A stretch of DNA of 35,658 nucleotides from an uncultured archaeon (GTDB lineage Archaea > Asgardarchaeota > Thorarchaeia > Thorarchaeales > Thorarchaeaceae), in NCBI GenBank assembly GCA_964590575.1, contig CAZPWM010000029.1:1-35658 (forward strand). The letters run 5' to 3'. A program made the position numbers and the translations under genes. Of this stretch, positions 2 through 22,415 are shown in pieces (position 1 is the stretch's first letter; each line of letters begins with the position of its first letter). The notes below the pieces were generated by a model. The model had not been told where the DNA came from, made no database searches, and saw only the letters and a program-made list of their open reading frames with translations.

Positions 2-820
2 GAGAGCGACATTGAGTTTGCCCTTAGTCTGACTTCTGCAGAGGGGTGGTCAAGCACAAGGTTGGATTTTGAGGAGCTACTAGAGTATGACCCTCATGCA
101 TGTTTCGTGGCCGATATAGATGATGAGTCAATTGGAATGGTCTGCGCTGTGCCTTACAATGGATTTGGCTACGTTAGCAATCTCATAGTTCTCGAGAAGC
201 ACCGACATGAAAGGCATGGAACAAAACTGATGGAATTTGCCATTAATTATCTCAAGAAGAGAAATGCGATGTCCCAGCTACTTGATGGTGTCCAAAAAGC
301 AGTCACATTGTATGAACGAATGGGGTTTAGAAAGATTTGCAAATCCCTGCGACTTGAAGGATATATCGAACCAAAAGAGTCCGATGATGTCAGGCAAATG
401 ACAAACAGTGATTTAGAAATAATAGATCAATTTGATACGAGAGTATTTGGTGCTTGTCGAAAGAAATTCATTCAATCTAGACTGAAACACTTTCCTAAAT
501 TATGTAAAGTCTTAGAGATAGATGGAGAGATGTGCGGGTACATCATGGGAAGTGAAAGAAAAGATTTCATCAGGATTGGTCCATGGGTTATGGCCCATCA
601 TTTCGAGTGTGCGGATGATTTGTTGAGGGCTTTTGCTACAGAAACTAGGAAGAAAATCCTGAAGATTGGAGTTCTTGAGAATAACAATCATGCAATCGAG
701 CTACTACATTGTCACAATTTCATTCAAACCACTTATTCATGGAGAATGATTAGAGGACAGGAAGGCGACTGGACCCTCTCCAATCACCTCTATGCAATAT
801 GCTCTCCTGCACGTGGTTAG
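2..820 (+). CDS. GNAT family N-acetyltransferase with a second C-terminal GNAT-like domain (5' truncated)
   Basis: The frame is open from base 2 (ESDIEFALSLTSAEGWSSTRLDF...), so the true start is outside the window. It has the acetyl-CoA motif LIVLEKHRHERHGTKLM, LYERMGF, and a second domain with RIGPW. Confidence 0.85.
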   Translation, partial: ESDIEFALSLTSAEGWSSTRLDFEELLEYDPHACFVADIDDESIGMVCAVPYNGFGYVSNLIVLEKHRHERHGTKLMEFAINYLKKRNAMSQLLDGVQKAVTLYERMGFRKICKSLRLEGYIEPKESDDVRQMTNSDLEIIDQFDTRVFGACRKKFIQSRLKHFPKLCKVLEIDGEMCGYIMGSERKDFIRIGPWVMAHHFECADDLLRAFATETRKKILKIGVLENNNHAIELLHCHNFIQTTYSWRMIRGQEGDWTLSNHLYAICSPARG

Positions 821-1989
821 TTTCTTCCTCGACGACGTTTCGCATCCTCCACCATCTGACCTAGATTCAAGTTGGAAACTCTGTCTGCTATCATTGGAGA
901 AATGACCAAGAAAACTGCGGCAAAGATTCCAATTACTAGGAAGTCGATAGGCAGTGTTACATATCCACCTTCAACAAACATTCGAATTAGTGAACGATAG
1001 ACGTTAGATACTGGAAGGTATTCGTTGAAAGTTCCAAACGATGCACCGACAAGTTCCAAGGGAGCGATTCCACCTCCGACAATCCAGTAGAATACACCTC
1101 CGAGAGCAGCTACAGGCACAACAAAGACAGAGTTTCTGAAGAATGCACCAGTGATAATACCAATTCCTGAACAGAAGAGAGCCAATAGAAACGTTAGTAA
1201 TAGAAATGTCAGAATCTCGCCATTTGGCCAGACGCCAAACAGAAGATAACTGAGAATAAACAGAAATGGAACCGCAGCGAAACTGATTACTACTCCACTA
1301 AGCATCTTACCTGTGTAGATAGCAATCGGTGATTGGTTAGAAAGAGTGAGTTCATCCATTGTTTCTTGCTCAAACTCTTGGGTCATAGCAGAGCCAGCTG
1401 CAAAAATGGCACCAAACATGACAGAATAGACGGAGAGTGTCCAAGCCATATATGCAAGTCTAGGTGGTGTAAATGGTCTAAGATTTACCATCTTGAAATC
1501 AGCCAGTGAGTCATTCAGTAGATAAGTCTGGTAGAATATATCCAACTTTCGTATAACAGGCATTCTAAGGTTCTTTGTGAGGTCCTCGTGTATATTAGCG
1601 ACTTGGATATGGATAGAAACTGATTCATTATTGGTCAATGCATCCTCGAATCCATCAGGTATTGTAATTACAAGAAGAATATCCCCATTCTGAAAGAGTC
1701 TGTTTGCAGTTTCTGCATCCATCAAAATTGGGTCCAATCTCGGAGGAACTGGGTCATACTCACCTAAGATTTCGATCAGTCCATCTGTATAGACTCCAGG
1801 ATTCTGTTCATTCAATACAACAGCGGTTTCAACTCCACTTCCGAAATAGACTCCGCCCATGAGACCTCCAAACCCAGCAAAGAACATGAGTGGCAGGAGA
1901 ATGACCAGTACAATCTTCTGGGGATTTCTTCTCCATACTCGAATCTCTTTGACGAAGCTGGCTTTGACAACTCTGAATGATATCATCAT
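817..1989 (-). CDS. ABC-2 type transporter permease
   Basis: Starts KEIRVWRRNP, followed by a TM helix, an extracellular domain with ITIPDGF, the EFEQETMDELTLS motif and several C-terminal TM helices. Confidence 0.9.
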   Translation of the reverse strand: MMISFRVVKASFVKEIRVWRRNPQKIVLVILLPLMFFAGFGGLMGGVYFGSGVETAVVLNEQNPGVYTDGLIEILGEYDPVPPRLDPILMDAETANRLFQNGDILLVITIPDGFEDALTNNESVSIHIQVANIHEDLTKNLRMPVIRKLDIFYQTYLLNDSLADFKMVNLRPFTPPRLAYMAWTLSVYSVMFGAIFAAGSAMTQEFEQETMDELTLSNQSPIAIYTGKMLSGVVISFAAVPFLFILSYLLFGVWPNGEILTFLLLTFLLALFCSGIGIITGAFFRNSVFVVPVAALGGVFYWIVGGGIAPLELVGASFGTFNEYLPVSNVYRSLIRMFVEGGYVTLPIDFLVIGIFAAVFLVISPMIADRVSNLNLGQMVEDAKRRRGRN

Positions 1990-3119
1990 GTTCGTTCAAC
2001 CTCCTTCTTCATCAGCCGTATGACTACAGCGGATATCACTATCCAAGTGCCAAGTAGATACAGTGTGCTGGTAGTCAATCCGAGAAGTGTATCAGAGAAG
2101 AAGACGCGAGGCCATAGGAAGAGTGAGTGTGTTGTTGGCAAAATCCCCATTCCTAACCGAATGAGTGCAGGGGAGAGACCAATAGGAGCCATGCCACCGC
2201 CCAATATAAATCCAGTAACAGTGAATAACACAGCAGCAAGGAGAGCTTGTTCTCGGTTGCGAATCTTCATACCAATCAATTCACCAATAGGAACTAAGGC
2301 TAAGATTGTCAACAGGAGTATCCCAAATAGGACGAGAATGTTGCCTTTTGGAAAGACATTCATGCTAAAACAGATGATGGGAGCAGAGATCAAGAGAGCC
2401 GAGAATGACCTGGGGATAGCTGCAATTGTTCGTCCGAGTATCAGTGCTAGGCGGGGTGTTGGGGAGTTCAAAGTATCTTGCAGGGCTTCTGTTTCGAACT
2501 CGGTGGCTGTCAACATAGCTTGACTTGCTAGGGAACATGCTATGAGTGAGAGAAGTATTGCGACTGCTGCCATATATTCAGCGTTCGAGGGTGTTGCCAT
2601 AAGGCTGAATGATTCGCTGATTGATATTGGAGCACCTGACTGGTCAAAGTCGGGATATACAGCCCCTTGATTGAAAAGTAGTACTGCAGCTTCGAGTCTA
2701 TGAACATAATTTTTGACAATATCATCATTAGCGTTATTGATAAACATCGTAACTGTTGCATTTTGACCTGATGTAATGTTTTCCCCAAACCCCTCTGGAA
2801 TCAGAATGTATGCAATCAATTCGGTATTGCGGTATAACTCATCAGCAGTATCAAGATCAAATCTTTCGATGCTAAACCACGTGTGATTTGTTGTAGAGAC
2901 CATATTCTCAATAATTCCCGCCATGTTGTTAGCTTCTGGTGAAGTATCTTCAATAACAAGACCACAGGCAAAAGACTCACCACCACCTACTGAAGCCCAC
3001 ATTATAGTGAAAACAAGAAGGAAAGCAAAAGGAATTATTAAACTTGGACCAAGAAACTTAGGATCTCGTTTTGCTTGCTTCAAGTCCTTTTTCACGATAG
3101 CGATTATCTCTCGTAGCAT
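1986..3119 (-). CDS. ABC-2 type transporter permease
   Basis: Motifs KKDLKQAKRD, ILIPEGF, EFETEALQDTLNSP and LPTTH; overlaps the next permease by 4 nt. Confidence 0.9.
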   Translation of the reverse strand: MLREIIAIVKKDLKQAKRDPKFLGPSLIIPFAFLLVFTIMWASVGGGESFACGLVIEDTSPEANNMAGIIENMVSTTNHTWFSIERFDLDTADELYRNTELIAYILIPEGFGENITSGQNATVTMFINNANDDIVKNYVHRLEAAVLLFNQGAVYPDFDQSGAPISISESFSLMATPSNAEYMAAVAILLSLIACSLASQAMLTATEFETEALQDTLNSPTPRLALILGRTIAAIPRSFSALLISAPIICFSMNVFPKGNILVLFGILLLTILALVPIGELIGMKIRNREQALLAAVLFTVTGFILGGGMAPIGLSPALIRLGMGILPTTHSLFLWPRVFFSDTLLGLTTSTLYLLGTWIVISAVVIRLMKKEVERT

Positions 3120-3120
3120 G

Positions 3121-4092
3121 TTAATCCCTCAATGTCGAACCAGTGATTGCCAGAAACACATCACCAAGGGAGGGTTCTCTCATCGAAGCTTGTTTGACAA
3201 CGAGACCATTCTCAGTGAGTCGACCAATTACGAGTGGTAAGTCTGAGTGTCCCATCTGACTACGAATCCATGCAGTGCGTGGACCTCCATTTAGTGGGTC
3301 AGAAACTTTTTCAACGTCGAGCTTAACTTTCTCAGTTAGCCATTCAGAGCCAACAGTAGATTCCATGCCTTCGATCAAAACTTCAATTAGATAGTCCCCA
3401 ACATACTCACGCTTAAGATCGCTGGGAGTGCCAGTGGCAACAAGGCGTCCATTGTCAATGACAATAACTCGGTCAGCTAATGCCTCTGCCTCATCCATAT
3501 AGTTCGTACAGAAGATAACAGTACGACCCTCATCCTTTATCTTCCGAACTTGATTCCAAATCAGATTCCGACTCTGAACATCCACTCCTAATGACATCTC
3601 ATCCAGTATCAACAGTTCCGAGTCATGAAGAATTGAGCGTACAAGGGCAAGCCTTCGTTTCATTCCTCCAGAGTATGTCTTCACCAAGTCATCCTTGCGG
3701 TGCGTGAGTCCCGCTAATTCCAGCATCTTTGTGATGCGAGTTTTCACCTCTGTTTTTGGGACTCCATACAACTCTGCGTGATATTCGAGGGCTTCATATG
3801 CAGTAAGGTCTTGGTAGAGTGCAGTTTCTTGCGGCATGAACCCTATCAGTTTACGGATTGAGTCTAGATTGTCTGTAACCTCAAGCCCAGAAACTTTCAC
3901 ACTGCCAGAGGATGGATTCAATATTCCGGTAATCAGTTTAACAGTAGTGGATTTGCCAGCCCCATTGGGACCTAAGAGACCTATAATCTCTCCTTTCTCT
4001 ACTGAGAAAGAAAGTTCATCCAGAGCTTTGTGACCGCCTTTGTAGATGTGCGTCAGATGTGATACTTCAACCATCGAGGTCAGTTGAACCAC
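3121..4092 (-). CDS. ABC transporter ATP-binding protein (DrrA/NodI-like)
   Basis: Walker A GPNGAGKS, signature YSGGM, Walker B LILDE, and C-terminal PSLGDVFLAITG. Confidence 0.95.
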   Translation of the reverse strand: MVQLTSMVEVSHLTHIYKGGHKALDELSFSVEKGEIIGLLGPNGAGKSTTVKLITGILNPSSGSVKVSGLEVTDNLDSIRKLIGFMPQETALYQDLTAYEALEYHAELYGVPKTEVKTRITKMLELAGLTHRKDDLVKTYSGGMKRRLALVRSILHDSELLILDEMSLGVDVQSRNLIWNQVRKIKDEGRTVIFCTNYMDEAEALADRVIVIDNGRLVATGTPSDLKREYVGDYLIEVLIEGMESTVGSEWLTEKVKLDVEKVSDPLNGGPRTAWIRSQMGHSDLPLVIGRLTENGLVVKQASMREPSLGDVFLAITGSTLRD

Positions 4093-4534: not shown

Positions 4535-5368
4535 TTGGTTCAGGACACTATCGTTGATGATCTTACTAGTCTCGGTTTAACTAAGAATGAAGCAAAAGCC
4601 TACCATGCACTAGTCAAGACTGGGAGAGCTACAGCCAGAGAGATTGCAGAGGAGTCTGGGATTCCACGCAGCAAGGTCTACGAGACCCTTGACCTGCTCG
4701 ACAAGCGAGGAATCATTAAGAAAGTGGCAGGCAGCGATCCTACTGAGTTTAATCCAGCTCCAGTAGATGCTGCACTGGACCATTTGGAGGAGAAGGTCAA
4801 GAGTTCTGCCTCAAGTGCACGGAAGGTTCTGCAAGGACTCCAAGCCATGCGGGATACGGAGTCGAAGGAGTTTGCATGGGCTGTAGAAGGGATGGAACAG
4901 GTCATTGTTGGGATGAGAACAGCCATCGAGGAAGCTCAGGAGTATGTGTTCATTGCCTCTGCATCTCCTGATCTCCTAGGAAGACTGAGAGGTTCATTCA
5001 GCAATGCAAGGAGTCGTGAAGTGAAGATAGAGGTGTTCACAACAACCCTTGGAGCTCAAGAGATTGCAGGACTTGAGCACTACCTCAAAGTGACAGTAAT
5101 CATGCCAAGCAAGGAGGTTCTCATGGAAAGCTTCAAAGAAGTCTTTCAAGCACCTGATTTGGACAAATTCGAGATGGAACCGTCACGAATGCTAATCATG
5201 AATGTAGACGGAAGGGAGAGTATAGGAGTATTCCTTCCGCCTGATGATACATCACATCCCTGGGCTCTTCACATTAGAAGCAGGCTAGTTGTCATGATCC
5301 AATGGCAAGTTGTCAAGACTGTCCTTTCAGGGGTGGAGGCAATGATACAGGGTGCTCTTTTAGGATGA
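4535..5368 (+). CDS. TrmB family transcriptional regulator
   Basis: LGLTKNEAKAYHAL...TAREIAEESGIPRSKVYETL HTH, plus a C-terminal effector domain. Confidence 0.92.
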   Translation: MVQDTIVDDLTSLGLTKNEAKAYHALVKTGRATAREIAEESGIPRSKVYETLDLLDKRGIIKKVAGSDPTEFNPAPVDAALDHLEEKVKSSASSARKVLQGLQAMRDTESKEFAWAVEGMEQVIVGMRTAIEEAQEYVFIASASPDLLGRLRGSFSNARSREVKIEVFTTTLGAQEIAGLEHYLKVTVIMPSKEVLMESFKEVFQAPDLDKFEMEPSRMLIMNVDGRESIGVFLPPDDTSHPWALHIRSRLVVMIQWQVVKTVLSGVEAMIQGALLG

Positions 5369-5617
5369 TTGAAATATAGAAGTCTTAGGACAACATATCC
5401 TACATCATGGATTTCGTGTTTTGATTCATATTTTAGCCAATCAAGAGAAGAAACATGCTTTTTGCTGCAAAAACACTCCTAGAACACATCCCTGACAAAG
5501 CGAAGGATGTTGAAGTCACATATGTTATGAATGAAACCTTCTATCAAGTTATATTCAGAAAATAGATTGCAATTCCGGTGATAATGCACCAAATGGTCAT
5601 TTCGATTATATCGTCGT

Positions 5618-5661
5618 AAAAAGAATAGAAGCGCTCAGGTGGCCTCCCACATGAGCACTTC
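5618..5661 (-). terminator. Hairpin plus U-rich tract terminating the micro-ORF cassette
   Basis: Minus strand reads GAAGTGCTCA-t-GTGG-gagg-CCAC-c-TGAGCGCTTC followed by TATTCTTTTT. Confidence 0.65.
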
Positions 5662-5751
5662 TTCAACAGTTACATCTCGTTGCTTAGTGGAACTAACAGG
5701 ACGTTCCTCTTTCCCTGAGGCAGAGCTCATGGTTTCGTTGTTTCGGGACAT
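5635..5751 (-). CDS. Micro-ORF 3, 38 aa (MSRNNETMSSASGKEERPVSSTKQRDVTVEEVLMWEAT)
   Basis: ATG 6 nt after the ORF2 stop, with AGGT SD-like sequence upstream. Its 3' end overlaps the terminator hairpin. Confidence 0.4.
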   Translation of the reverse strand: MSRNNETMSSASGKEERPVSSTKQRDVTVEEVLMWEAT

Positions 5752-5757
5752 TGTGAT

Positions 5758-5847
5758 CTACCTGTGCATGTAGGAGTGAGTGATAGCGTCTGTTGAGATT
5801 TCTTTCTTAAGCGCGGACTTCCTCTTGATTGTTTTTTCTAGTGCCAT
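5758..5847 (-). CDS. Micro-ORF 2, 29 aa (MALEKTIKRKSALKKEISTDAITHSYMHR)
   Basis: Strong SD GGAGGT 8 nt before the ATG; shares TDAIxxxYxxR with micro-ORF 1. Confidence 0.6.
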   Translation of the reverse strand: MALEKTIKRKSALKKEISTDAITHSYMHR

Positions 5848-5853
5848 AATGCT

Positions 5854-5961
5854 TTACCTCCGATAGATGTATGCGTACCCGATAGCGTCAGTTGTGTAAA
5901 CCTTCGCAATCTTGTTTTCCAACTTCTCTCGCCTGTTGTTAGTGTGTTTCATGCGATGCAT
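5854..5961 (-). CDS. Micro-ORF 1, 35 aa (MHRMKHTNNRREKLENKIAKVYTTDAIGYAYIYRR); alternative start 5952
   Basis: Lies about 33 nt downstream of a BRE-TATA, with GTGAT SD-like sequence upstream; shares TDAIxxxYxxR with micro-ORF 2. Confidence 0.6.
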   Translation of the reverse strand: MHRMKHTNNRREKLENKIAKVYTTDAIGYAYIYRR

Positions 5962-5993
5962 TGTTTATCACTAGACTAATACACACCATTTAT

Positions 5994-6006
5994 CTATATA
6001 AGGTTT
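5994..6006 (-). promoter_or_regulatory. Archaeal BRE-TATA promoter for the micro-ORF cassette
   Basis: Minus strand AAACCTTATATAG. Confidence 0.6.
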
Positions 6007-6102
6007 GTTAACCAAACTATATTCATATTATAATGTTGTCATTAAACCATTAAATAAGAAATGATTCTTTAACTGTACTGATAATGTGATAATGACTTCA
6101 TC

Positions 6103-6115
6103 AACAAACTTATAT
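6103..6115 (+). promoter_or_regulatory. Archaeal BRE-TATA promoter for the ArsR-like regulator
   Basis: AACAAACTTATAT, nearly the mirror image of the divergent promoter. Confidence 0.5.
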
Positions 6116-6256
6116 TGTCCCTCCTATCATTAAAATATGGATTTGGAGTGTAACACGCTTCTAGTGGGGTCTAATTCCAGAACCCGCGAGGAAAATGTCA
6201 ACAGACGATTCGAATCGCTTGATGGATGGATCAAAATTGCATTGGTGAATATTAAC

Positions 6257-7012
6257 ATGGGCGATGACTTTGAAACCACTGAAACCACGGACAGCCTTGA
6301 AGGGATTGTTGTAACGAAAGAGGGAAAAATTCCTCAAAGAGAGATTGTTTTTGTAACCAATGAAGAAATGGCTGCTGTTCTGGATGAGGTTGTTCGTTAC
6401 AACATTTTGCAAACTCTACGCAAAGGCATTGAGGATACTCATACAACAAAAACCATTGACAAGGCAACTGGAGATACGATTATCCGGCAAAAAGTCGTCA
6501 AACGTGATGTTCTATCAGTTGTTGAGATTGTTAAACTGTCACCAAACTGCTGTCAGGAAAGTGAAGAGATCACAAAGAATCAGGTCTACCACCATTTACC
6601 GAAACTGATCGAGTATGGATACGTTATCAAATATGGCACAATTACAAAGGGGAAACGGAGTACAGACTATTATCGTAGAACTGCGAAAGGATTCATGTTA
6701 ACTACGGGCGCTTGGGGTATTGATCAGAAACGTATCCGGGAAAAGCTGGAAAGTTTTACAGACAAGATGCTTGAAACCTTCAATCTAAAGGTCTCCAAAG
6801 AGAAACGTGATGAGCTACTTAATCTGAGCACCAAAAGAGTTCAGATGCAGTATGAATGGAGGACAAAGATTGCTGAGATGGTCAATCTAGATATAGCCAA
6901 CAAAGAAACACTCTCAATGTACGAGATGCTTTTGGATTACTATTCTGTGGGTTCAAAAGAATATATGGATACCATCTATAAAATCAGAGCTATTCTCTTC
7001 CCTGAACATTAG
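6257..7012 (+). CDS. ArsR-like winged-helix transcriptional regulator with a helical C-terminal domain (alternative start 6137)
   Basis: LDEVVRYNILQTLR...TKNQVYHHLPKLIEYGYV...YYRRTAK pattern. SD GGTGA at 6244-6248 favours the ATG at 6257. Confidence 0.8.
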   Translation: MGDDFETTETTDSLEGIVVTKEGKIPQREIVFVTNEEMAAVLDEVVRYNILQTLRKGIEDTHTTKTIDKATGDTIIRQKVVKRDVLSVVEIVKLSPNCCQESEEITKNQVYHHLPKLIEYGYVIKYGTITKGKRSTDYYRRTAKGFMLTTGAWGIDQKRIREKLESFTDKMLETFNLKVSKEKRDELLNLSTKRVQMQYEWRTKIAEMVNLDIANKETLSMYEMLLDYYSVGSKEYMDTIYKIRAILFPEH

Positions 7013-7043: not shown

Positions 7044-7418
7044 TTACACATGTCCACGCAGCTGTATAACAGTTTTCTTGATATCGAAGATTGTGAGTTC
7101 AGGAACTGCTGAGGGGGCTGCAAAGGCAATCACCCAACTATTCTCATCGATCAGTACTAGTATGAGATGACCTTTGTTATCATCAGCAGTTGCTATGTAC
7201 GAGTCATTGGAAGATGCCACACGTTTGTATGTCACTCCCCCAGCGGACACAGTCGGTGCGTCTTTATCAGCGGATTTTAAAATCCCGTCAATCTCTTCAA
7301 CTAGGTTCCAGTTCTCTGTCTGCCAGATGATTGTACCATCTTTTGCGACTGCGAATGCATGAATCTTAGGATTGTTTGCAAAGAGAAGATTCCATTCATT
7401 TCCTATTACTAGAGCCAA
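7044..7418 (-). CDS. Profilin-like protein (Asgard profilin family, divergent paralog)
   Basis: 124 aa; AFAVAKDGTIIWQTENWNL...GGVTY...IAT...KGHLIL...VIAFAAP matches the recalled Asgard profilin pattern. Confidence 0.75.
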   Translation of the reverse strand: MALVIGNEWNLLFANNPKIHAFAVAKDGTIIWQTENWNLVEEIDGILKSADKDAPTVSAGGVTYKRVASSNDSYIATADDNKGHLILVLIDENSWVIAFAAPSAVPELTIFDIKKTVIQLRGHV

Positions 7419-7499: not shown

Positions 7500-7886
7500 C
7501 TAAATCTTACCTCTGAGGGTCTTCGCAGCACGGTCTACATCAACATAGACTCCATCTGGTTGAGCCTGAGCATCAGCCCATGCTACAACCCATCTGTCGC
7601 CTGTTGTTTCGATTTTGGTAAGTAGTAGAATTCCACTTCCTTGAACGTTTCGAGCAACTAGGCTCTCCGGAGTAGAACGCATTGTTGAATATTTTACTTG
7701 ATTCTGAACAATGCTGCTTGCGCGAGACTTCACAGCAGCCATCAAACCTGCTGCATCAGCTGTCAAGTCCCAATTATTACTCTGCCAAAGGACTTGTCCA
7801 GACTCGGAAATCACTCCAAAGGCTTGGACCATGTTGCCTGAACTGTTGTATGCTTGTGTATATGCATCCATTACAGGATCGCTCAT
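7500..7886 (-). CDS. Profilin (Asgard type)
   Basis: 128 aa; FGVISESGQVLWQSNNWDL...VKYSTMRSTPESLVARNVQGSG...WVVAW; strong SD GGGGTGA. Confidence 0.8.
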   Translation of the reverse strand: MSDPVMDAYTQAYNSSGNMVQAFGVISESGQVLWQSNNWDLTADAAGLMAAVKSRASSIVQNQVKYSTMRSTPESLVARNVQGSGILLLTKIETTGDRWVVAWADAQAQPDGVYVDVDRAAKTLRGKI

Positions 7887-8395: not shown

Positions 8396-10942
8396 GTGAT
8401 GAAAATAGACCGGACTACATTTCTGGGAGCCACATACGTAGTGGGTCTTGTTCTGGTCGCTTTGGCAATGAGCTCAGGGCGGTTCTTACATCCTGATGTC
8501 ATCATCACACTAGTTTTTGAGATGGCACTTCTCTATTTCTCGATATTTAGAGCACCACTCAAAAGAAATGAAATAGGAATAATGATCCTCCTTGCAATAG
8601 CCTATTTTACGCTTAGCATATTATTGGGAATCTTTTCAGATATGGTAATAGTAGCTATAGGTGGTGTTGCCATTTATGTCGCTATGACAATCAGAGTTAA
8701 GCTCGACACAACAAAAGCACTACTCGGAGGTCTTTATTCAGCAGGCATTTTCTATACGCTATTTCTTGTAGCACTTGGCAGAGGATTTGATCCGGATGTT
8801 TTTGGAGCGCTCGCTCTCGAGGTAATACTTCTCTATATGTCCCTCATGAAACAACCACCTGACAAGAAGGAACTTGCGGCGATCAGTACACTGATCATAA
8901 TCTATTTTGCGCTCAGCATTGCATTCATGTTTTTCTCTGAAGTAGTCCTCTGGGTGCTTGGCAGCCTTGCTCTGTATGGGGTTATTAGAGCCGAACCGAA
9001 ATTTCCCCTTACCAAACGAGCTATTGGAACAGGACTAATTGTTGGCGTGATAATGACCTTCATGGGTATTTATCTCGCTTTGAAGATTGGCCTAGTGTTT
9101 CTAGTCGGGGCAGAAATGCTAGGAGCACTATTCCTTGGTATAAAAGGCAGATACACTAGAGAAGAGAATACCGTGGTTGTGACTATTGCCAATACTTCCT
9201 CAATAGTAGCAATTGGTGTCATGTTGACGTATCCAGCTATCGCAATTTTCGAACCTTTGAACCCGCTTTTCAACACAAGTCTTGCAGCCTATGATCCCAC
9301 TGTGACCCTCATCTTCATCATGTTCACGACCGGCATCAGTGCATTTTTTGGAATCATTCTGCTTGCACCCTTTAGAAGCAGATTCAAGGATGAGCCTTGG
9401 CCTCATGTGCGACCTCAAGCTGAGTGTATTAATTCAATCGGTAGTGATGCTGAGTCAAGAAAAGCTGTAGCTATGGGACTGGTCGCATCAGGAGCTTGGG
9501 TAGGGACAACAAAGGTTGTCGAAGGTGTCAGTGGAACAACGCTAAGCACAGTGCCAAATGCGTTAGTTCCGATTGTTCCTGTATTCAGTGCCATTCCAGA
9601 TTGGATTGGTCTAAGCAACTCGCCCATGATTGCAGGTATTGGTTTTTTCGTCGGATGGAAACGAGCGCTTGTGATGGTAATGGGAAGTGTGCTTTCCATT
9701 CTGATTTGGATTTTCCTTGAAGGTGCTGATGGATCTATCCTTTATGCGTCACATCTAAAGAGACCTGAGATATTGTACGTAGCTCTTGGCATCTTTGTCA
9801 CAGTGATACTTGGAGATGTATTAGGCTCAAAAGAAGAGAAGAATCTAGCTCCAGAGGAAATCCAAGAGAAGATGAAGACATCAGATGATGGAGCAGTAAT
9901 AGTAGATACACCACATAAAACTAGTGACTTGTCAAGTGTTCTAAGAGTCAAAGAAGAACTATTCTCAATTGAAACCTTCAAAGAAGAGGTTCGACAAATC
10001 ATAGAGAACCCTAGAGAATACATGCGTTCAAGGAGAGGAAGAATACCACCATGGATAGCATTTGTATCACTGGGCTTATTCATGATCGTAGGTGTATTGG
10101 TGTTCTGGTTCATTAAACCATTTATGGAAAGTCAGACAACGCCGCTCGAGATTCATTGGCTCTTGATTGTATTTGGTACACCATTAACTCTTGTATCAGC
10201 CTATTTCACTGCGAGAGCAATAAGTGAAACCGGAATGCTTGCTGGGTACATTTCAGATATTATCGCCATTCCAGCAATTCTATTCTTCAAAGTTACATTT
10301 TCTGCAATCACTACATTCATGGGAATGCTTGGGGCAATTCAGGATGCTGCAATTGCGCTTCTGGTTCACCTAAGGCTAGGAAGATTAACAGGAGTTCGTG
10401 GGAGAAACATCACAAAGGCAGTCTTCATAGGAACTATGCTTGGCACGACTGTCGGTTCAATGATTACTTTTCAGATTTTCAGTAGGTATGGTTTTGGTAC
10501 AACTGACTTTCCCAGCCCGGCGGCGCAGCTTTTCGGATTCCTTGTGTTGAGTATTCAAGGATTAGGTGACAACTTTCAATTACCTGGGGTAAGTCAATTA
10601 GGAGGTAATGAAATACTTGCTTTTCTATATCTGATTGCTTGGGGAGTAGGTGGATTCCTTGCTGGCAGAGAATTGAACAAAAGAGGTCTGAGTCCCATTA
10701 GCCTTGTTGTAGGAGTGTTAGTTCCACCAGCGACATCAGCAACCCTTCTCATTGGTGCGTATATCAGCCACAAAACCAAACAAATACAGAAACCAATTCC
10801 TCATTCCGATCATTTACCACAACCAGTTGAAGTTTATGAAGCAGGCTACACCAAAACGAGTCGATTACTAAGTGGTGTCGTCGCGGGAGAAGCTGTTGTA
10901 ACTGTGATTTGGGTTCTGGTGAGTGCATTTATCTTCTTTTAG
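8396..10942 (+). CDS. OPT/YSL family oligopeptide transporter with an N-terminal membrane extension
   Basis: LTKRAIGTG...YLALKIG...EENTVVVTIA, RAISETG, FPSPAA and SGVVAGEA motifs. Confidence 0.85.
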   Translation: MMKIDRTTFLGATYVVGLVLVALAMSSGRFLHPDVIITLVFEMALLYFSIFRAPLKRNEIGIMILLAIAYFTLSILLGIFSDMVIVAIGGVAIYVAMTIRVKLDTTKALLGGLYSAGIFYTLFLVALGRGFDPDVFGALALEVILLYMSLMKQPPDKKELAAISTLIIIYFALSIAFMFFSEVVLWVLGSLALYGVIRAEPKFPLTKRAIGTGLIVGVIMTFMGIYLALKIGLVFLVGAEMLGALFLGIKGRYTREENTVVVTIANTSSIVAIGVMLTYPAIAIFEPLNPLFNTSLAAYDPTVTLIFIMFTTGISAFFGIILLAPFRSRFKDEPWPHVRPQAECINSIGSDAESRKAVAMGLVASGAWVGTTKVVEGVSGTTLSTVPNALVPIVPVFSAIPDWIGLSNSPMIAGIGFFVGWKRALVMVMGSVLSILIWIFLEGADGSILYASHLKRPEILYVALGIFVTVILGDVLGSKEEKNLAPEEIQEKMKTSDDGAVIVDTPHKTSDLSSVLRVKEELFSIETFKEEVRQIIENPREYMRSRRGRIPPWIAFVSLGLFMIVGVLVFWFIKPFMESQTTPLEIHWLLIVFGTPLTLVSAYFTARAISETGMLAGYISDIIAIPAILFFKVTFSAITTFMGMLGAIQDAAIALLVHLRLGRLTGVRGRNITKAVFIGTMLGTTVGSMITFQIFSRYGFGTTDFPSPAAQLFGFLVLSIQGLGDNFQLPGVSQLGGNEILAFLYLIAWGVGGFLAGRELNKRGLSPISLVVGVLVPPATSATLLIGAYISHKTKQIQKPIPHSDHLPQPVEVYEAGYTKTSRLLSGVVAGEAVVTVIWVLVSAFIFF

Positions 10943-16220: not shown

Positions 16221-19200
16221 TCACTCTATGGTAGCAGTTGAATCTATTCTGGGATAGATGTCAGTGAAGATTCTCACAGCCTCCTCATACCTCTCACGAG
16301 TCATCTCGTGATGTGAGAAGCGAGCCTCTTCGTATGTCTGTACGAATTGTTCGACAGTTGCACCATCGAGGGGAAGTGTCTGTAGGACCCGATCCAGAAA
16401 CTCGCGAGCTGTCTCGGAATGAGCCCGCTCAGAGCCTATCTTTGTCCCACACATTTGCTCGAAGGTACGATACGCAAGAGTGATAGAAGCACCGTACTTT
16501 CCAGCATCTGCAAGTTTCTTGATATTTCGTAATTTGGTCGAGATATCAAGTCCTCTCGAAATTACAGGACTGCGAAACATTCCTTTTACTATGTACAGGT
16601 ACGCCAGAACAGCGACGACTGCACCTATAAGCAAGATACTTGCTATGAGTAAATCTGTTCCTTGCAATGGGTTACCACCTGCTGTTTGTATATTAATTGT
16701 GAAAATATTGGATTGAATATTACCAACTTCAGTTGATATGAGTGTGATTCTGATATTAATTACAGTTCCATCAGGTTGCGCGGCTACGTTATGTGTAAAT
16801 TGCCCGCGTACATCTGTGGTGAAATAGGGATTGACATCGGTACCATTGAAATTCAGCAGCGCTTGACGGAACATTATGAGATTCCCTGCGGTGTCTCGGA
16901 GTGTGCACTCAATTATGAACGGTTGACCTGGGTCAACCCTGAGGGGAATTAGAGAGAACACAACGTCAGTGAATACATGAACAGAATTATCCGAAATAGA
17001 CGAATCGGAATCTATGAATGAAGCACCGCTAAAGTCAGCGGTTATGTTGAAGAGTCCATCACCTTCATCCCAAGAGAAGGGTACTACTAGCACAAATCTC
17101 TCTGGGAACGGACCACTAAGAAGAAGGTCGGTAAGATATGTAGTACCGAGATAGATAGAAACCGATTCTCCAAATAAGGGGTTGCTATCATCATCATATA
17201 GTTCAACATCCATTGAGAAGGTTTCACCAGGCAATATTGCGATTTGATTTGTTTGAACGCTGACATGTGAATCAATGAAGACGAGAATCGTCCATACTGT
17301 TGGGCCATTCCTTAGTTCATGAAATGTCGAAGTGACAGCCACACTGATGAGGTACGAGCCTCGGGGTTGAAATGTGGGTACTAGAAGAGAAATGGAATAA
17401 CTGCCATCCCCAGCTGTGATAGCTGTAAAGCCCGTAAATCCACCATCAACCAAGACCTCTACTGTGACACCATCGGCCGCGGATCCATCATCATTGAGAA
17501 CATCTCCTGTAACAACTATAGTTTCACCTCTGCCTACGATGTTATCAACTGGTTCAGGGTCCATAAAGACATCTACGCGTTCGATGACTGTGACATCGTT
17601 GAAGAACTCAAGTGTATCAAGATCACCCCAAGCAATCGATGGTGCTCTGAACAAAGCATATCCTGACAGGACACCAATATCATTACTGTAAGGTACTGGA
17701 TGAGGATAACTGAATGCACCTAGAACAGGATCACTAATGGTGAAGTTGGCGACAAGGTTTCCGCCCCACCAAATCTCGATATTATATCCAAACAGGGGAG
17801 TAGTATTAGTGAACTGCAGAGTTCCTGAGAAGGTCAGAGTGCCTCCCAAGTAAACCACTGCTAGGTCCACAGCCGTAGTGATAGATGCCTGGTAGATATC
17901 AACTGTGATTGGTACAACTGGAGACTCTCCAAATGTGGCGTAACCAACAGGGTCTATGTAAGCCCAAACATGTTGCACATAGGTAAGAAGATCAAGGTCA
18001 TCTGGAATATCAAAGAAGATAGTGAATCTACCGCTCCCGTCAGTCGTAAAATCGTTGACTATAATCCCATTTGCAGTAGAATAATAGTCACCCCAATAGA
18101 TGTCCAAAGGTAAGTCTGCGTATGGAGTTCCGTTGTCCCACACCACCCTACCAGATATGTTCAATGTTTGATCCAGATAGATGGTAGTAGGAGTCACTAA
18201 GAACTCGGTAAATTGAGGTTCCGGTGCAATGACATTAATCGGCAGAAAAACTGTGGAGGTATTAGCTATCCAAGGATAAAGAGAATTAAACTCGATAAGG
18301 AGGTCATAGGACCCGGGAGAGAGAGTTCCTGGAATGACCCAGTTCAGATTGAAGGAACCATCTGATGCTGTGATATCAGTAGCTCGTGTAATTCCGAAAA
18401 GTGTTAGCTCGACGGTAACACCACCATAAGGAATACTTCCATTCACGTATTCAAGATTTCCAGTTGCAACAACAGTTTCACCAATTCTGTATGGACCCAC
18501 TGGAAGAATGATATTTGTGAATGTGGTCTGCCACTGAATCAGTGTGAGGATGTTATGGACCGACTCACTCGATGCAAAAAAGACAGTACCTGCATAATTA
18601 CCATAGACCTCAATATTAGTCCTGATAGAGTCCCAGCTCATTCCTGAGTAGGACAAATTACCCTGACCAGACACATCTGTTATGATGCTACCTAAGAAAG
18701 TGAGGGTTCCATTGTCCCAATATATTGGAACTGTGGCTCCTGAAAAATCGGTTCCATTGTGTGCAAAGTAAGCATGAACATAGACAGTGAGAGTGCCGTT
18801 TTGCATGATAGAGTTCGAATTGATTGTCACATCGAGATTAATCGTGTACTTTACTCGTGTGATGTCAAAGTAAGCGATAGTATCATTGATCAGAGGATTT
18901 GTACTGGTATAATTAACACGGAAGTAGACAATTCCTTCATTGTATGTTGCAAAGTTGAGTGGGGTGAGAAATCCTCCAGTTGAATTTGTTAGAGAATTGT
19001 CAAGATCAATCCAACCTCCACCACCCCAATAGGATACATACACCATTTCACCTACTAACGGCGGAGCTCCACCAACATAAGAAAGTACACCCTGAACATC
19101 AAAAGCTGTTTCATCGACATAGAGTTGGGTTGGGACTGTTAGCGTTATCTCAGTGTAGTATCGTTGAAGTTGTATCTGTGGAGCAACAGAGCTGAATGCA

Positions 19201-22200
19201 TCATCAACGAATATGTCCCCTGAGGTCCAATTTACAAAGACATCAATCAATCCGGGTTCATCTTGGGTCGGGGTGCAGTTGTAGAACATCTGATAGTATC
19301 CAGATGCATCAGTGGTCTTCTGAAACACATAGGTGTTAGATGAATTGACCCAGTGGATATAGACTGTTTCAAACTGAATTGGAGTATTGTTCGAGTACTG
19401 AAGAGTGCCATTTAGAAAAATGGTGTCGTTCAAATAGTAGAATGTGGAGTCTGCATGGATCGAGATGAGTGTGCCTGTGGCCTCAACTGACAGAGGCTCA
19501 TGGAATGACTCGCAATCATAGACTGTATAGTATGGTGATGTGTAGTTTGCCCAGATATAGACTGTTTCAATTGATTGTCCAATAGGGATTGTATATTGGT
19601 AGAAATAACCTCCTGTGGAGTTTGTCAGGTCGCTTCCAATATAATAGACTCCAGTGCTATTCTGTAACCAGAAATCAACCCATTCTCCAGCCATTGGAAA
19701 AGCAAACTCTGAGAGCTGTAGAATCCCTTGGATATCAACTGGTTGAAGAAGGAACACATGGTCCGGTGTGACAAAGATTGGGTCAAGGGAAACATCGAAT
19801 TTCTTCACAGTTGTGAAGCGGTGTACTGATTCTGAACTAGCGAGAGTTGGTTCCATTGAGGTGAAGCTGGACCAGTATTCTATTGGACCTTCATCAGACA
19901 AAAGAGTCGTGTAATTGAGTTCGTAATATCCATCGGAAGCGGTCAGTACAGACCCTATTAGGAAGTTCGACCCATTGTTCCAGTAGATATCGACCCATCG
20001 GCCGCCAATACCTGTGCCATTTGATACATGGGTCAAATATCCGAAGATTGTGATGTTCTCACCTATGTAAAGGGGATCGAATACTTGATTGATAGTGAGG
20101 TGTGTTCCGCTAGAGCCAACATTCACAGGAACGGTATAACTCCAATTACCCGCGATTAGTGGCCATGGAGAACTCCAGTTTGCATATGCAAAGTAGGTAC
20201 CATCTGGTTGCGTGATGGGAATGACGTAACTCCATGTGAACCCACCAGTGGAGTTCAGACCGCGTGTGGCATTAGCTTGTGTATGGAAAAAGACCCCTAC
20301 TTGTTGTCCTGGAGGCAAAGCCGTGCCATTGAGAAGATAGGCAACACCATCATAGTAGATTGTTGCTCCAGCTGACACATCGGTTGGAAAGACAAACAGA
20401 TCGAATCCCACGCGACCCCAGACTGTGACTGTTGAGTTGTTGGATGAGCGGGCTTCAAGCAACCGCGGAAAGCCATATTCGTCCCAGTCTCCCAAGTACC
20501 ACGACCACACAACGTGATTTCCCACCGTCATACGAGAGAGGTCTAATGGGTCTGCATAGATGTTAAGTTCGTAATATCCATACTCGCTAATGGACGCATT
20601 TCCCATGAATGAGTTATCCCAATAAATGCCGATATTCCTGTTATCATGATTCGAGCTATTTACAGGAACACCTCCAACCTTCATGGTGCCATAGACATGG
20701 ACTGTGTCCTCCCAGTAGGCAACATGAGTGTCTAAACCTTGACTGACATTGAGCTGTGTCGTTTCACTCAAAATAAAGCCACCTTCACCAGAGGGTGGTG
20801 TCGGATATGAGAAGGGGTTTGGTATTCCCACGGCATAAACCGAGGTGAAATTCGTGATTCTAATCGTTGAAGTCTGCCATGTAGCCGAGATGATGTGGTA
20901 GTCTACCGTCGCACTTGGTGGAAATATGTGTGTAATATTCGCTATAGGGTTATCAAGCGGTTGACCAATTGTTTGTGCACCAATATATACTGCATCAGTT
21001 TCGTCATTAAAGACTATGAGCTCCGGAGTGGTCACTGGAACACCGTCAATAGTGATTTCAGCACTCAGGTCGAAGGGAGTTCCAATCTGTGCCCATGGTT
21101 GTCCATTGGTAGGCCAGACGCGAAGTTGAACGTTTGGACTTGGTATATTGATGGGATCTTCACCACCCGTAATAGTATCCGGAAGTACTGCGGGAATGAC
21201 CTGAATCCACTCACCACCGGTTGAAGATCCCGACATTGGAATGAAGACTTCAGTCCAGAAAGCCATGTGTTTTACTTTGAGTGTTCTATAGGCGTCAGTT
21301 GGGTCAGGGTCACCAATTGCATAGCCCGCTGCCAATCGCGCAGGAATATGGAGATAGCGCATGAAGACGCAATAGGCTGTGGCAAAGTCCATGGGGAGAC
21401 CTCCTCCACGCTCAAGGAACCAATCAGTTACTTCTTGGCCAACTGGTGGTCGATCTAGTTGACTTAATGTTAGGTCAAAGGTGCTTTGGAAATAGAGCTG
21501 AACAGCCATGGCTGTTTCATATGCATTATTGCCAACTGTCAAGAATTGACTGATGTTAGCTTCCACCTCAGGAGATAGGGAAGGCAGGCCTAGATAGTTA
21601 TCTTTTCCCACACCGGGACCAGGAAGGGCATTTGCGACAATATTATTGATGTCTTGATTTTCGTACGTGAGCTGAAAAGTTACAATGACCTCTTCTCCAG
21701 TAGTCCCCTGAATGAATGGAGTGAAGAGTAATGTACCATAATCATCAGTTGTCAAGTCATAATCCAAGAGCCGACCAGGATCGGGATAAGGAGTACCATC
21801 CCCTGCAAAACTCCAGGTTGTGAAGGAATCCTCGATCACACGTATCGCTGGAAAGAGTGTAGGTAGTTCTATTGCACCGACAGTTGCCCCGGCGGTGGCA
21901 TTGAAGGCAACAGTATATACTTGATTAGTGGCTTCTCCAAATGTGATAAGTTGGTCAATATCATCAAGAGGAACTGGACCAACGTTGATTTTTCCCCAAT
22001 TTGAGCCATCGTAGTAATCATACGCACCCACCCGCCACAATTGTGGGGGGTCCGCAGGCGCTACCGTAAATATGACTTCCTCTAGATGATCCAATAGATC
22101 ATCGGGAAGAGGTAAATTAAGATTAACATCTGTATAATTGACATTGTCAAACCAGTTGGTTCGTCCTCCCGCAAACTCGTTATCATATGGCCAGTATGGA

Positions 22201-22415
22201 ATCTCATCATATTCATAATGTGGGTCATACTGACGAACAGCGCCTGATTGTATGATTACAAAATTATAAGTTGCCCAGACGAGACTAGCTACTATAAAGA
22301 TTGAGCTGATGAGGGTAGTAAGACCCATTCTTCTGCGGGAAGATTTCGTTGCGGCGCTCACTGGATTAGTCCTCTCGTTCACCATTTGGGAGATTTGGCG
22401 TGCGGTGTAACTCAT
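16221..22415 (-). CDS. Giant surface protein: transglutaminase-like domain (triad degenerate), about 13 Ig-like repeats, TM helix and DUF4129-like tail
   Basis: LWRVGAYDYYDG, IPARLAAGY and WTEVF; repeated TxxxG[YF] beta units; C-terminal SETAREFL...YEEARFS. Confidence 0.85.
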   Translation of the reverse strand: MSYTARQISQMVNERTNPVSAATKSSRRRMGLTTLISSIFIVASLVWATYNFVIIQSGAVRQYDPHYEYDEIPYWPYDNEFAGGRTNWFDNVNYTDVNLNLPLPDDLLDHLEEVIFTVAPADPPQLWRVGAYDYYDGSNWGKINVGPVPLDDIDQLITFGEATNQVYTVAFNATAGATVGAIELPTLFPAIRVIEDSFTTWSFAGDGTPYPDPGRLLDYDLTTDDYGTLLFTPFIQGTTGEEVIVTFQLTYENQDINNIVANALPGPGVGKDNYLGLPSLSPEVEANISQFLTVGNNAYETAMAVQLYFQSTFDLTLSQLDRPPVGQEVTDWFLERGGGLPMDFATAYCVFMRYLHIPARLAAGYAIGDPDPTDAYRTLKVKHMAFWTEVFIPMSGSSTGGEWIQVIPAVLPDTITGGEDPINIPSPNVQLRVWPTNGQPWAQIGTPFDLSAEITIDGVPVTTPELIVFNDETDAVYIGAQTIGQPLDNPIANITHIFPPSATVDYHIISATWQTSTIRITNFTSVYAVGIPNPFSYPTPPSGEGGFILSETTQLNVSQGLDTHVAYWEDTVHVYGTMKVGGVPVNSSNHDNRNIGIYWDNSFMGNASISEYGYYELNIYADPLDLSRMTVGNHVVWSWYLGDWDEYGFPRLLEARSSNNSTVTVWGRVGFDLFVFPTDVSAGATIYYDGVAYLLNGTALPPGQQVGVFFHTQANATRGLNSTGGFTWSYVIPITQPDGTYFAYANWSSPWPLIAGNWSYTVPVNVGSSGTHLTINQVFDPLYIGENITIFGYLTHVSNGTGIGGRWVDIYWNNGSNFLIGSVLTASDGYYELNYTTLLSDEGPIEYWSSFTSMEPTLASSESVHRFTTVKKFDVSLDPIFVTPDHVFLLQPVDIQGILQLSEFAFPMAGEWVDFWLQNSTGVYYIGSDLTNSTGGYFYQYTIPIGQSIETVYIWANYTSPYYTVYDCESFHEPLSVEATGTLISIHADSTFYYLNDTIFLNGTLQYSNNTPIQFETVYIHWVNSSNTYVFQKTTDASGYYQMFYNCTPTQDEPGLIDVFVNWTSGDIFVDDAFSSVAPQIQLQRYYTEITLTVPTQLYVDETAFDVQGVLSYVGGAPPLVGEMVYVSYWGGGGWIDLDNSLTNSTGGFLTPLNFATYNEGIVYFRVNYTSTNPLINDTIAYFDITRVKYTINLDVTINSNSIMQNGTLTVYVHAYFAHNGTDFSGATVPIYWDNGTLTFLGSIITDVSGQGNLSYSGMSWDSIRTNIEVYGNYAGTVFFASSESVHNILTLIQWQTTFTNIILPVGPYRIGETVVATGNLEYVNGSIPYGGVTVELTLFGITRATDITASDGSFNLNWVIPGTLSPGSYDLLIEFNSLYPWIANTSTVFLPINVIAPEPQFTEFLVTPTTIYLDQTLNISGRVVWDNGTPYADLPLDIYWGDYYSTANGIIVNDFTTDGSGRFTIFFDIPDDLDLLTYVQHVWAYIDPVGYATFGESPVVPITVDIYQASITTAVDLAVVYLGGTLTFSGTLQFTNTTPLFGYNIEIWWGGNLVANFTISDPVLGAFSYPHPVPYSNDIGVLSGYALFRAPSIAWGDLDTLEFFNDVTVIERVDVFMDPEPVDNIVGRGETIVVTGDVLNDDGSAADGVTVEVLVDGGFTGFTAITAGDGSYSISLLVPTFQPRGSYLISVAVTSTFHELRNGPTVWTILVFIDSHVSVQTNQIAILPGETFSMDVELYDDDSNPLFGESVSIYLGTTYLTDLLLSGPFPERFVLVVPFSWDEGDGLFNITADFSGASFIDSDSSISDNSVHVFTDVVFSLIPLRVDPGQPFIIECTLRDTAGNLIMFRQALLNFNGTDVNPYFTTDVRGQFTHNVAAQPDGTVINIRITLISTEVGNIQSNIFTINIQTAGGNPLQGTDLLIASILLIGAVVAVLAYLYIVKGMFRSPVISRGLDISTKLRNIKKLADAGKYGASITLAYRTFEQMCGTKIGSERAHSETAREFLDRVLQTLPLDGATVEQFVQTYEEARFSHHEMTRERYEEAVRIFTDIYPRIDSTATIE

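Follow-up and report, generated by a model that had tools for sequence, protein, structure and literature searches.

Does the 768-nt gap between a TrmB-like gene (4535-5368) and a winged-helix gene (6137-7012) in the genome of an uncultured Thorarchaeaceae archaeon hold genes of its own, and if so, what do they encode? The window analyzed here is a 35,658-nt stretch of contig CAZPWM010000029.1 (assembly GCA_964590575.1), and all coordinates follow its numbering. An initial annotation, made from the letters alone, had proposed that the gap contains a complete minus-strand transcription unit with three translated micro-open reading frames (ORFs). We find that the gap, which does hold a complete peptide unit, is almost certainly a real operon of translated microprotein genes, judging from the comparison of orthologous and paralogous loci described below. 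We further consider it probable, though with clear reservations, that the minus strand at 6017-5618 carries an autonomous operon of three cistrons, each for a cytoplasmic microprotein, and that this operon is one copy (group A) of a module that recurs in Thorarchaeota.

The trio and its signals all lie on the minus strand (Table 1). The three ORFs, the promoter, the Shine-Dalgarno (SD) sequences embedded in the stop regions, the two 6-nt spacers (ORF1-ORF2 and ORF2-ORF3), the 9-mer GACGCTATC common to ORF1 and ORF2, and the hairpin with its T-tract are all located where they had been proposed. The TATA box begins 40 nt 5' of the ORF1 ATG, so that, with the transcription start placed at the usual distance from the TATA box, the leader would be very short or absent. 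Across 20 loci, mean column identity in the promoter block (6007-5988) is 0.91, and a GGTT(T)GG...CAAACC arrangement is conserved upstream in the group-A loci compared. At the other end of the unit, a T-rich run follows the hairpin in most alignment rows; the hairpin itself was overlooked by a simple terminator scan because its 14-nt loop exceeds the limit of the scan.

Table 1. Coordinates of the peptide operon, its predicted signals, and other features of the window and the genome
Feature	Coordinates	Strand	Description
Candidate operator box GTTTG-N5-CAAAC	6003..6017	-	Complementary arms; right arm merges with the B recognition element (BRE)
Promoter	5995..6007	-	Archaeal type; BRE-like CAAACC and TATA box TTATATA
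ORF1 (class 1)	5961-5854	-	35 aa, basic; ends YTTDAIGYAYIYRR; C-terminal motif TTDAIGYAYIYRR; stop TAA
SD of ORF2, GGAGGT	5861-5856	-	Last Arg codons and first base of the ORF1 TAA stop
ORF2 (class 2)	5847-5758	-	29 aa, basic; end and motif ISTDAITHSYMHR; stop TAG
SD of ORF3, AGGTAG	5763-5758	-	Includes the ORF2 stop codon
ORF3 (class 3)	5751-5635	-	38 aa, acidic; variable N-terminal part, conserved C-terminus TVEEVLMWEAT; stop TGA
RNA hairpin	5661-5628	-	10-bp stem, 5661-5652 pairing with 5637-5628
T-tract TTCTTTTT	5625-5618	-	Predicted archaeal oligo-T termination signal, right after the hairpin
ArsR-like winged-helix regulator	6137..7012	+	291 aa, C-terminal helical domain; divergent from the trio; candidate local regulator
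Methyltransferase remnant, UbiE-like, S-adenosylmethionine (SAM) dependent type	5440-5562 (stop to 5565)	+	Last 41 codons only in this genome
Profilin paralogues, tandem	7044-7418 and 7500-7886	-	~30% identical to each other
ABC-2 type transporter	817-4092	-	Three genes (ATPase and two permease-like)
OPT oligopeptide transporter	8396-10942	+	848 aa
Long open frame	16221-22415	-	2064 aa
Bactofilin cassette	Contig C7:39150-40826 (L098) of this genome; also L081 of genome G001		HTH_45/Sso10a-like gene, AGTCACA-N3-TGTGACT, 413-aa bactofilin

The case for translation is carried by the comparison with related genomes. Of the 24 other genomes of the genus, 23 contain a match to the DNA of the gap (67-81% identity), against none of 16 genomes outside it. 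In each of the 20 orthologous loci compared (20/20), all three ORFs are present and open; they measure 35, 26-30 and 37-38 aa and differ in length by whole codons only, while the non-coding frames are stop-free in only 0-16 of the 20 loci (the 16 belonging to the ORF1 antisense frame). The ratio of nonsynonymous to synonymous change (pN/pS; pooled Nei-Gojobori, with the two shifted frames of the same alignments as controls) is 0.46 for ORF1 (0.93 and 1.14 in the shifted frames), 0.33 for ORF2 (1.44 and 0.97) and 0.65 for ORF3 (0.99 and 0.90). The sequence GGAGGTA[AG] before ORF2 is kept in 20/20 loci, as is the combination of AGGTAG, 6-nt spacer and ATG at ORF3. Taken together, the open frames, the pN/pS values, the in-frame indels and the conserved SD sequences indicate that all three ORFs are translated genes, and the conservation, pN/pS and indel patterns bear out the transcription unit that had been proposed. 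It is exceedingly improbable that we are instead dealing with a conserved RNA or DNA element in which frames are open by chance. The hairpin does represent a real constraint at the RNA level, and in the paralogous modules conservation is higher in the promoter-proximal DNA than in the coding parts, but this reading does not fit the codon-position pattern, the pN/pS values well below those of the shifted frames, the restriction to in-frame indels, or the fact that the frames are also open in paralogues diverged beyond DNA recognition. In addition, an Rfam search of 5000-6600 on both strands returned no match at E values up to 10.

The three ORFs share one frame in the window. Among the 20 orthologous loci the ORF1-ORF2 spacer measures 4, 5, 6 or 7 nt (in 2, 6, 11 and 1 loci, respectively); since it varies, the shared frame is not conserved, and a read-through fusion of ORF1 and ORF2 is excluded by the 9 of 20 orthologues with spacers of 4, 5 or 7 nt. 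Database proteins of 69-72 aa that resemble ORF2-ORF3 fusions (P0002, P0006, P0009, P0011 and P0015) were likewise rejected as gene-calling artefacts, as they read the TAG stop as Q ('...YRQITM...'). Such TAG-as-Q calls show that some pipelines used a recoded table on these metagenome-assembled genomes (MAGs). The conserved DNA past ORF3 (5452-5565) is the 3' end of the convergent methyltransferase gene and not part of the peptide unit.

With respect to the peptides themselves, a profile-profile comparison (hhalign) aligns ORF1 with ORF2 at 93.9% probability over the C-terminal 16 columns (KVxTTDAIGYAYxYRR versus KQISTDAITHSYxYR), and many paralogues in other loci match both profiles. ORF1 and ORF2 are thus evidently paralogues, in agreement with the duplication that had been suggested from their shared 9-mer. 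Across 37 modules, class 1 and class 2 peptides are basic (median isoelectric point 10.2 and 10.3, net charge +5 and +6), and class 3 peptides are acidic (median isoelectric point 4.8, net charge -3). All three classes are hydrophilic, with grand average of hydropathy (GRAVY) values of -0.64 to -0.85 (medians of -0.82 and -0.85 for classes 1 and 2), and Cys is missing from 36 of 37 peptides in class 1 and equally from 36 of 37 in class 2. Judged by composition, none of the peptides has a hydrophobic or signal segment, and the median maximal hydrophobic moment in the peptide modules is 0.30-0.35. AlphaFold2, given the ORF1 alignment, predicts a single helix over residues 2-34 (mean predicted local distance difference test score 77), and a complex prediction from the three peptide alignments, with ORF3 as the partner, gave no answer (score 0.02).

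No database or publication that we searched describes these peptides. Pfam (E up to 0.1) and NCBIfam (E up to 0.01) returned 0 families for the three peptides, an ESM Atlas search with ORF1 gave no usable match, and the exact sequences of all three are absent from ~15 billion predicted proteins. An exhaustive profile search of 1.84 billion representative proteins (E up to 0.001) matched 33 proteins, all of them peptides of 29-90 aa except two. These two long matches (P0001 and P0030, with 20 and 7 matching stretches) are Gram-positive-type surface proteins with a repeated 'RQVSTDAVTG', in which short matches were summed, and we set them aside. The database relatives of the peptides carry either no name or 'hypothetical protein', and full-text literature searches on small proteins and ORFs of Asgard archaea and Thorarchaeota and on Asgard bactofilin did not turn up the family. 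The initial annotation, which did not recognize a described family here, is therefore upheld by Pfam, NCBIfam, Rfam and the literature. The peptides also fit none of the HbYX, PIP-box and WH2 motifs. A proteasome-type HbYX C-terminus was rejected because Tyr is preceded by T, M, K, L or R and because class 1 ends in YRR, where Tyr is not penultimate; for the PIP-box and WH2 motifs, the positions either misfit or lie in the variable part.

The family is widespread within one lineage. A profile built on ORF2 matches 70 of 400 genomes of the phylum: 68 of the 85 genomes of the same family (this genome excluded), 27 of 27 of the genus, and, among 314 genomes outside the family, a single marginal match (E 0.008). 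Matches number 3-10 per genome. As far as these searches reach, the peptides are an undescribed, multi-copy microprotein family restricted to Thorarchaeota. An order of two basic peptides and then an acidic one is seen again and again, in 37 modules that come from several genera and contexts, and the family can be defined by tandem basic peptides ending in [ST]T[DE]A[IL]..[AS]Y.YR(R), followed by an acidic peptide that ends in EVL.[LW]EAT inside a hairpin, a definition that the trio of the window fits as its seed. The N-terminus of the peptides is variable and the C-terminus conserved, with ORF3-type lengths of 34-40 aa across modules. These paralogous modules had gone unseen in the initial annotation, and the locus of the window is one of several in its genome. 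A second full trio (33, 31 and 38 aa) lies at the start of another contig (C73:49-373, locus L071), three basic peptides are encoded at C1:87878-88304, and one, perhaps two, at C43:1360-1620. Beside the second trio there is a convergent tRNA, detected as a 119-nt Rfam match (L071:461-579, minus strand) and missed by ARAGORN, probably owing to an intron. A general link of the modules to tRNA genes was rejected, as ARAGORN called no tRNA in 7 loci and the one Rfam tRNA stands beside the second trio only.

The surroundings of the modules differ from place to place. Pfam scans and clustering of 77 neighbor proteins at 20 paralogous loci distinguish at least five contexts. In that of the window (A), the trio lies between a convergent UbiE-like methyltransferase gene and the divergent ArsR-like regulator gene, which is followed by two profilin genes. 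Context B comprises desulfoferrodoxin, the trio, a 199-aa zinc-ribbon membrane protein and a GNAT protein; context C, EF-1-alpha, a 139-aa membrane and zinc-ribbon protein, three basic peptides and aIF5B; context D, the same protein as in context C (here 138 aa) followed by a beta-propeller protein; and context E, DNA polymerase X and URO-D. No enzyme, and no gene of any kind, is common to all five. No mobile-element genes were found beside the loci, whose positions are fixed and common to several genera. In group A, both profilin genes are syntenic with the trio and the regulator in all ten larger loci examined, although only the second of the two (7500-7886) reaches the Pfam Profilin threshold. 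The methyltransferase gene, 72 nt upstream of whose remnant the TrmB-like gene ends, has its full or nearly full length at 23 of the 24 other group-A loci examined; at the remaining one (L007) it went undetected. Its reduction to a stub beside an intact trio indicates that the methyltransferase is dispensable for the trio. The window also holds a very long open frame of its own (Table 1).

This arrangement bears on the idea, raised in part by the initial annotation, that the peptides are exported signals or precursors of ribosomally synthesized and post-translationally modified peptides (RiPPs) sensed by the adjacent regulator in an RRNPP-like manner, with the ABC-2 (ATP-binding cassette) transporter exporting them and the OPT transporter bringing them back. 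We hold this to be highly unlikely. It could account for a regulator gene beside the peptide genes throughout the family, for an ABC ATPase and an OPT transporter in the window that are syntenic in other genomes, and for a conserved C-terminal 'core' behind a variable N-terminus. However, the peptides are strongly hydrophilic and, by composition, have neither signal peptide, hydrophobic stretch, Cys nor a double-glycine type site; no modifying enzyme recurs in the five contexts; and the methyltransferase has been lost here while the trio is intact. The regulator, moreover, is of the ArsR type with a coiled-coil-like tail and not a tetratricopeptide repeat (TPR) sensor. As for the transporters, the gene order around group A is conserved over ~16 kb across genera, the ABC-2 exporter and the OPT transporter included, and since this synteny takes in unrelated genes too, it does not specifically link the trio to transporters; adjacency of the ABC genes is missing from L172 and L173, the most distant two of the genera examined. 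The flanking ABC-2 and OPT genes would in themselves fit a peptide export and import scheme, and they are part of this wider conserved gene order. With no common modifying enzyme, no Cys, hydrophobic or signal segments, and a methyltransferase reduced to 41 codons, the 'leader/core precursor' suggestion in particular finds little support.

The divergent ArsR-like protein, a neighbor that had been singled out together with a check of its synteny, shows weak Pfam matches to PadR and HTH_20, and a phmmer search matches its residues 122-287 to the PH1932 transcription regulator (PDB 1uly, E 1.5e-4). It adjoins the trio in 25 of 25 group-A loci. Among 52 family loci at which relatives of the regulator have upstream DNA, 45 carry a divergent peptide module within 700 nt (31 a full trio and 14 a partial one, with none in 7; E up to 0.01), so that both the nature of this neighbor and its linkage to the trio hold throughout the family.

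The non-A modules have a different, almost invariant promoter region of ~110 nt, which in two paralogues of one genome is 96.4% identical over 111 nt, far above the coding parts. It contains the palindrome AGTCACA-N3-TGTGACT, a third half-site and the sequence GCTATATATACT. Exact palindromes occur 12 times, in 4 of the 5 genomes searched (a control pattern occurs 0 times). In 11 cases, the start codon (ATG) of a basic peptide comes 87 nt downstream; the remaining palindrome stands in front of the gene for a 413-aa bactofilin (PF04519, E 5.5e-12), and ahead of that gene lies one for an HTH_45/Sso10a-like winged-helix protein. The bactofilin was found throughout the genus (28 of 28 genomes). Of 26 loci, 24 carry the palindrome (at most 2 mismatches allowed) 89-102 nt upstream of the bactofilin start, and all 26 have the winged-helix gene upstream. 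In this genome, the only exact site is that of the C1 module, and the site at the bactofilin gene departs from the palindrome by a single mismatch. Sharing the same predicted operator, the paralogous modules and the cytoskeletal bactofilin gene appear to form one regulon, from which the module of the window is distinct in having its own divergent regulator. An operator common to the paralogous modules and bactofilin is, as far as motif searches can establish it, a new finding. It also opens the speculative possibility, a long shot in our view, that the peptide modules are a lineage-specific microprotein layer acting on the Asgard cytoskeleton, in which a single transcription factor would induce a bactofilin polymer and, along with it, as many as ten tiny basic peptides able to bind or tune cytoskeletal filaments. 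Three observations prompt it: the non-A operator at a fixed distance from the start codon, the link to bactofilin, and the position of the group-A trio beside two profilin genes.

How might the operon of the window work? Translation of ORF1 would start leaderless or nearly so, and that of ORF2 and ORF3 would follow by coupling, so that the three peptides would be made together. We tentatively propose, giving this mechanism somewhat less than even chances, that the peptides are trans-acting cytoplasmic modulators. Their action would consist in binding to a larger partner, be it a nucleic acid or the acidic surface of a protein, with the acidic ORF3 product pairing with, or buffering, the two basic ones. 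The divergent ArsR-like regulator would control transcription through the GTTTG-N5-CAAAC box that abuts the BRE. Several observations weigh against the operon of three cytoplasmic microproteins as we describe it. Binding of the regulator at the upstream box is suggested by adjacency. No protein of at least 150 aa in this genome bears the peptide motif, as a check for domain mimicry revealed. A complex of 1:1:1 stoichiometry is hard to reconcile with the approximately eight basic-peptide genes versus two ORF3-type genes of this genome, and is weakened further by five modules without ORF3 (L051, L053, L055, L057 and L065). Finally, ORF3 is nearly neutral over its N-terminal half (pN/pS 0.72, compared to 0.54 in the C-terminal half), and its conserved C-terminus is confounded with the RNA hairpin. 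From the last two points it follows that ORF3 may matter as a translated stretch of RNA rather than as a protein.

The overlap between ORF3 and the hairpin is extensive. The last nine ORF3 codons (E-E-V-L-x-W-E-A-T) form the 5' arm, inner stem and loop: the 5' arm, GAAGUGCUCA, consists of the codons for E-V-L-M, the 3' arm, UGAGCGCUUC, starts with the TGA stop codon, and the RNA fold has an inner stem (GUGG/CCAC) capped by a loop of 4 nt. In an alignment of 42 distinct ORF3 ends, taken from orthologues and paralogues, pairing holds in 86.1% of the cells, versus 30-45% when the partners are slid by 1-3 columns. Changes on both sides are found in 23 cells, a count reached by 0 of 500 shuffles, and 15 of these two-sided cells belong to pair 22-29. 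In one pair, the partners are position 2 of the W/L codon and position 3 of the Ala codon, and across the inner stem TTG in place of TGG (W to L) is matched by GCA in place of the synonymous GCC; an amino-acid change is here compensated by a synonymous one. At the same time, E-A-T ends 33 of 37 ORF3-type peptides while third codon positions vary, which points to a constraint at the protein level on the ORF3 C-terminus as well. The overlap of ORF3 and hairpin with its compensatory changes is, on the evidence of these alignments, a new finding; in the initial annotation it had gone unnoticed that codons of ORF3 make up the hairpin.

These data invite the reading that only ORF1 and ORF2 are functional peptides and that ORF3 is an attenuator-like, cis-acting device, in which ribosomes reaching a stop codon buried in the terminator hairpin would set the formation or stability of the mRNA 3' end or read-through into the convergent gene. 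The near-neutral N-terminal half, the conserved C-terminal codons that double as hairpin 5' arm and loop with the 3' arm starting at the stop, and the covariation just described all accord with it. So do the modules without ORF3, which end in a different hairpin right at the stop of the last basic peptide, and the convergent gene or tRNA found within ~30-90 nt downstream in groups A and B and on contig C73. We nevertheless regard it as unlikely, given that E-A-T is retained despite varying third positions, that neither the start codon nor the SD nor the 6-nt spacer varies and lengths remain within 34-40 aa, and that no downstream gene on the same strand is there to be regulated. Archaeal termination is, furthermore, generally driven by oligo-T and does not need a hairpin. 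In two of the modules without ORF3 (L053 and L055), a shared stretch resembling a tRNA T-arm was observed ~80-130 nt 3' of the last peptide stop; neither ARAGORN nor Rfam at gathering score called it.

The opposite charges of the peptides also bring to mind a toxin-antitoxin-like module, in which the basic peptides would be harmful binders of nucleic acids, the acidic ORF3 product their antidote, and the copies kept by addiction. Multiple copies, basic products paired with an acidic one, tightly coupled translation and palindromic operators upstream are what such a module would be expected to show. Yet the five modules with basic peptides only would lack the antidote, the excess of basic over acidic genes in this genome runs the same way, and the loci hold fixed chromosomal positions across genera with no adjoining mobile-element genes. 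Moreover, the non-A modules share one operator with a cytoskeletal gene instead of having autoregulated operators of their own. Altogether we consider this explanation quite improbable, and the operon of three cytoplasmic microproteins remains the reading that we prefer.

Gene callers miss these genes. Given that the trio is absent from ~15 billion predicted proteins, part of the Asgard proteome is invisible to standard annotation. What has been overlooked here is a multi-copy family under selection that is tied to dedicated regulators, with one operator in common with a bactofilin gene, and it offers a tractable entry into regulation in organisms close to the origin of eukaryotes. The end of ORF3, in turn, provides a clean natural example of dual coding for protein and RNA structure. 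As the peptides can be synthesized chemically, their binding partners can be sought without cultivating the organism.

Compared with known systems, the operon shows partial resemblances in several directions. Among the peptide-regulator cassettes of the RRNPP type (PlcR-PapR, Rgg-SHP and AimR-AimP), a small peptide gene likewise adjoins the gene of a DNA-binding regulator in a conserved pairing. The thorarchaeal system, by contrast, is archaeal, has three peptides that by composition are without secretion signal, and pairs them with an ArsR-like winged-helix protein matching PH1932, in which no TPR was found. RiPP precursors are accompanied by a co-located modifying enzyme (radical SAM, YcaO, LanM, P450, etc.), and none is present among the 77 neighbors at the 20 paralogous loci; the peptides are also Cys-poor and reverse the pattern of such precursors, with a variable N-terminus and a conserved C-terminus. 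Type II toxin-antitoxin systems share with the trio small, multi-copy, coupled genes, upstream palindromes and products of opposite charge. The thorarchaeal products are far smaller, match no toxin-antitoxin family in Pfam or NCBIfam, and come from positionally stable loci, and some of the modules have no acidic member.

Bacterial attenuator leader peptides such as trpL and hisL likewise come from a short ORF with its 3' end within a terminator hairpin that is followed by a T-tract. In the trio, however, there are no structural genes downstream and no run of regulatory codons, and the C-terminus of the peptide is itself conserved. The leaderless multi-peptide operons of Firmicutes (psm-alpha phenol-soluble modulins and aureocin A70) encode hydrophobic or amphipathic, exported peptides that act on membranes. 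They resemble the thorarchaeal operon in having several paralogous peptides of ~20-45 residues, predicted to be helical and without leader, head to tail in a short operon. No search that we made revealed sequence similarity to these peptides, and the thorarchaeal ones, two basic and one acidic, are strongly hydrophilic (GRAVY ~-0.8), with no exporter common to their five contexts. The amphipathic, hydrophobic membrane helices of bacteriocins and phenol-soluble modulins have no counterpart here, as seen from the hydrophobic moment of 0.30-0.35 and the negative GRAVY values. In Methanosarcina mazei, the microproteins sP26 and sP36 reportedly act in trans to modulate larger proteins. Like them, the thorarchaeal peptides have fewer than 50 residues, their own promoter, a cytoplasmic location (predicted here), no known domains and a lineage-restricted distribution; unlike them, they are encoded by a co-transcribed and coupled trio that is multi-copy and has a dedicated operator. 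Small-protein operons are a known kind to which Thorarchaeota would add a new family.

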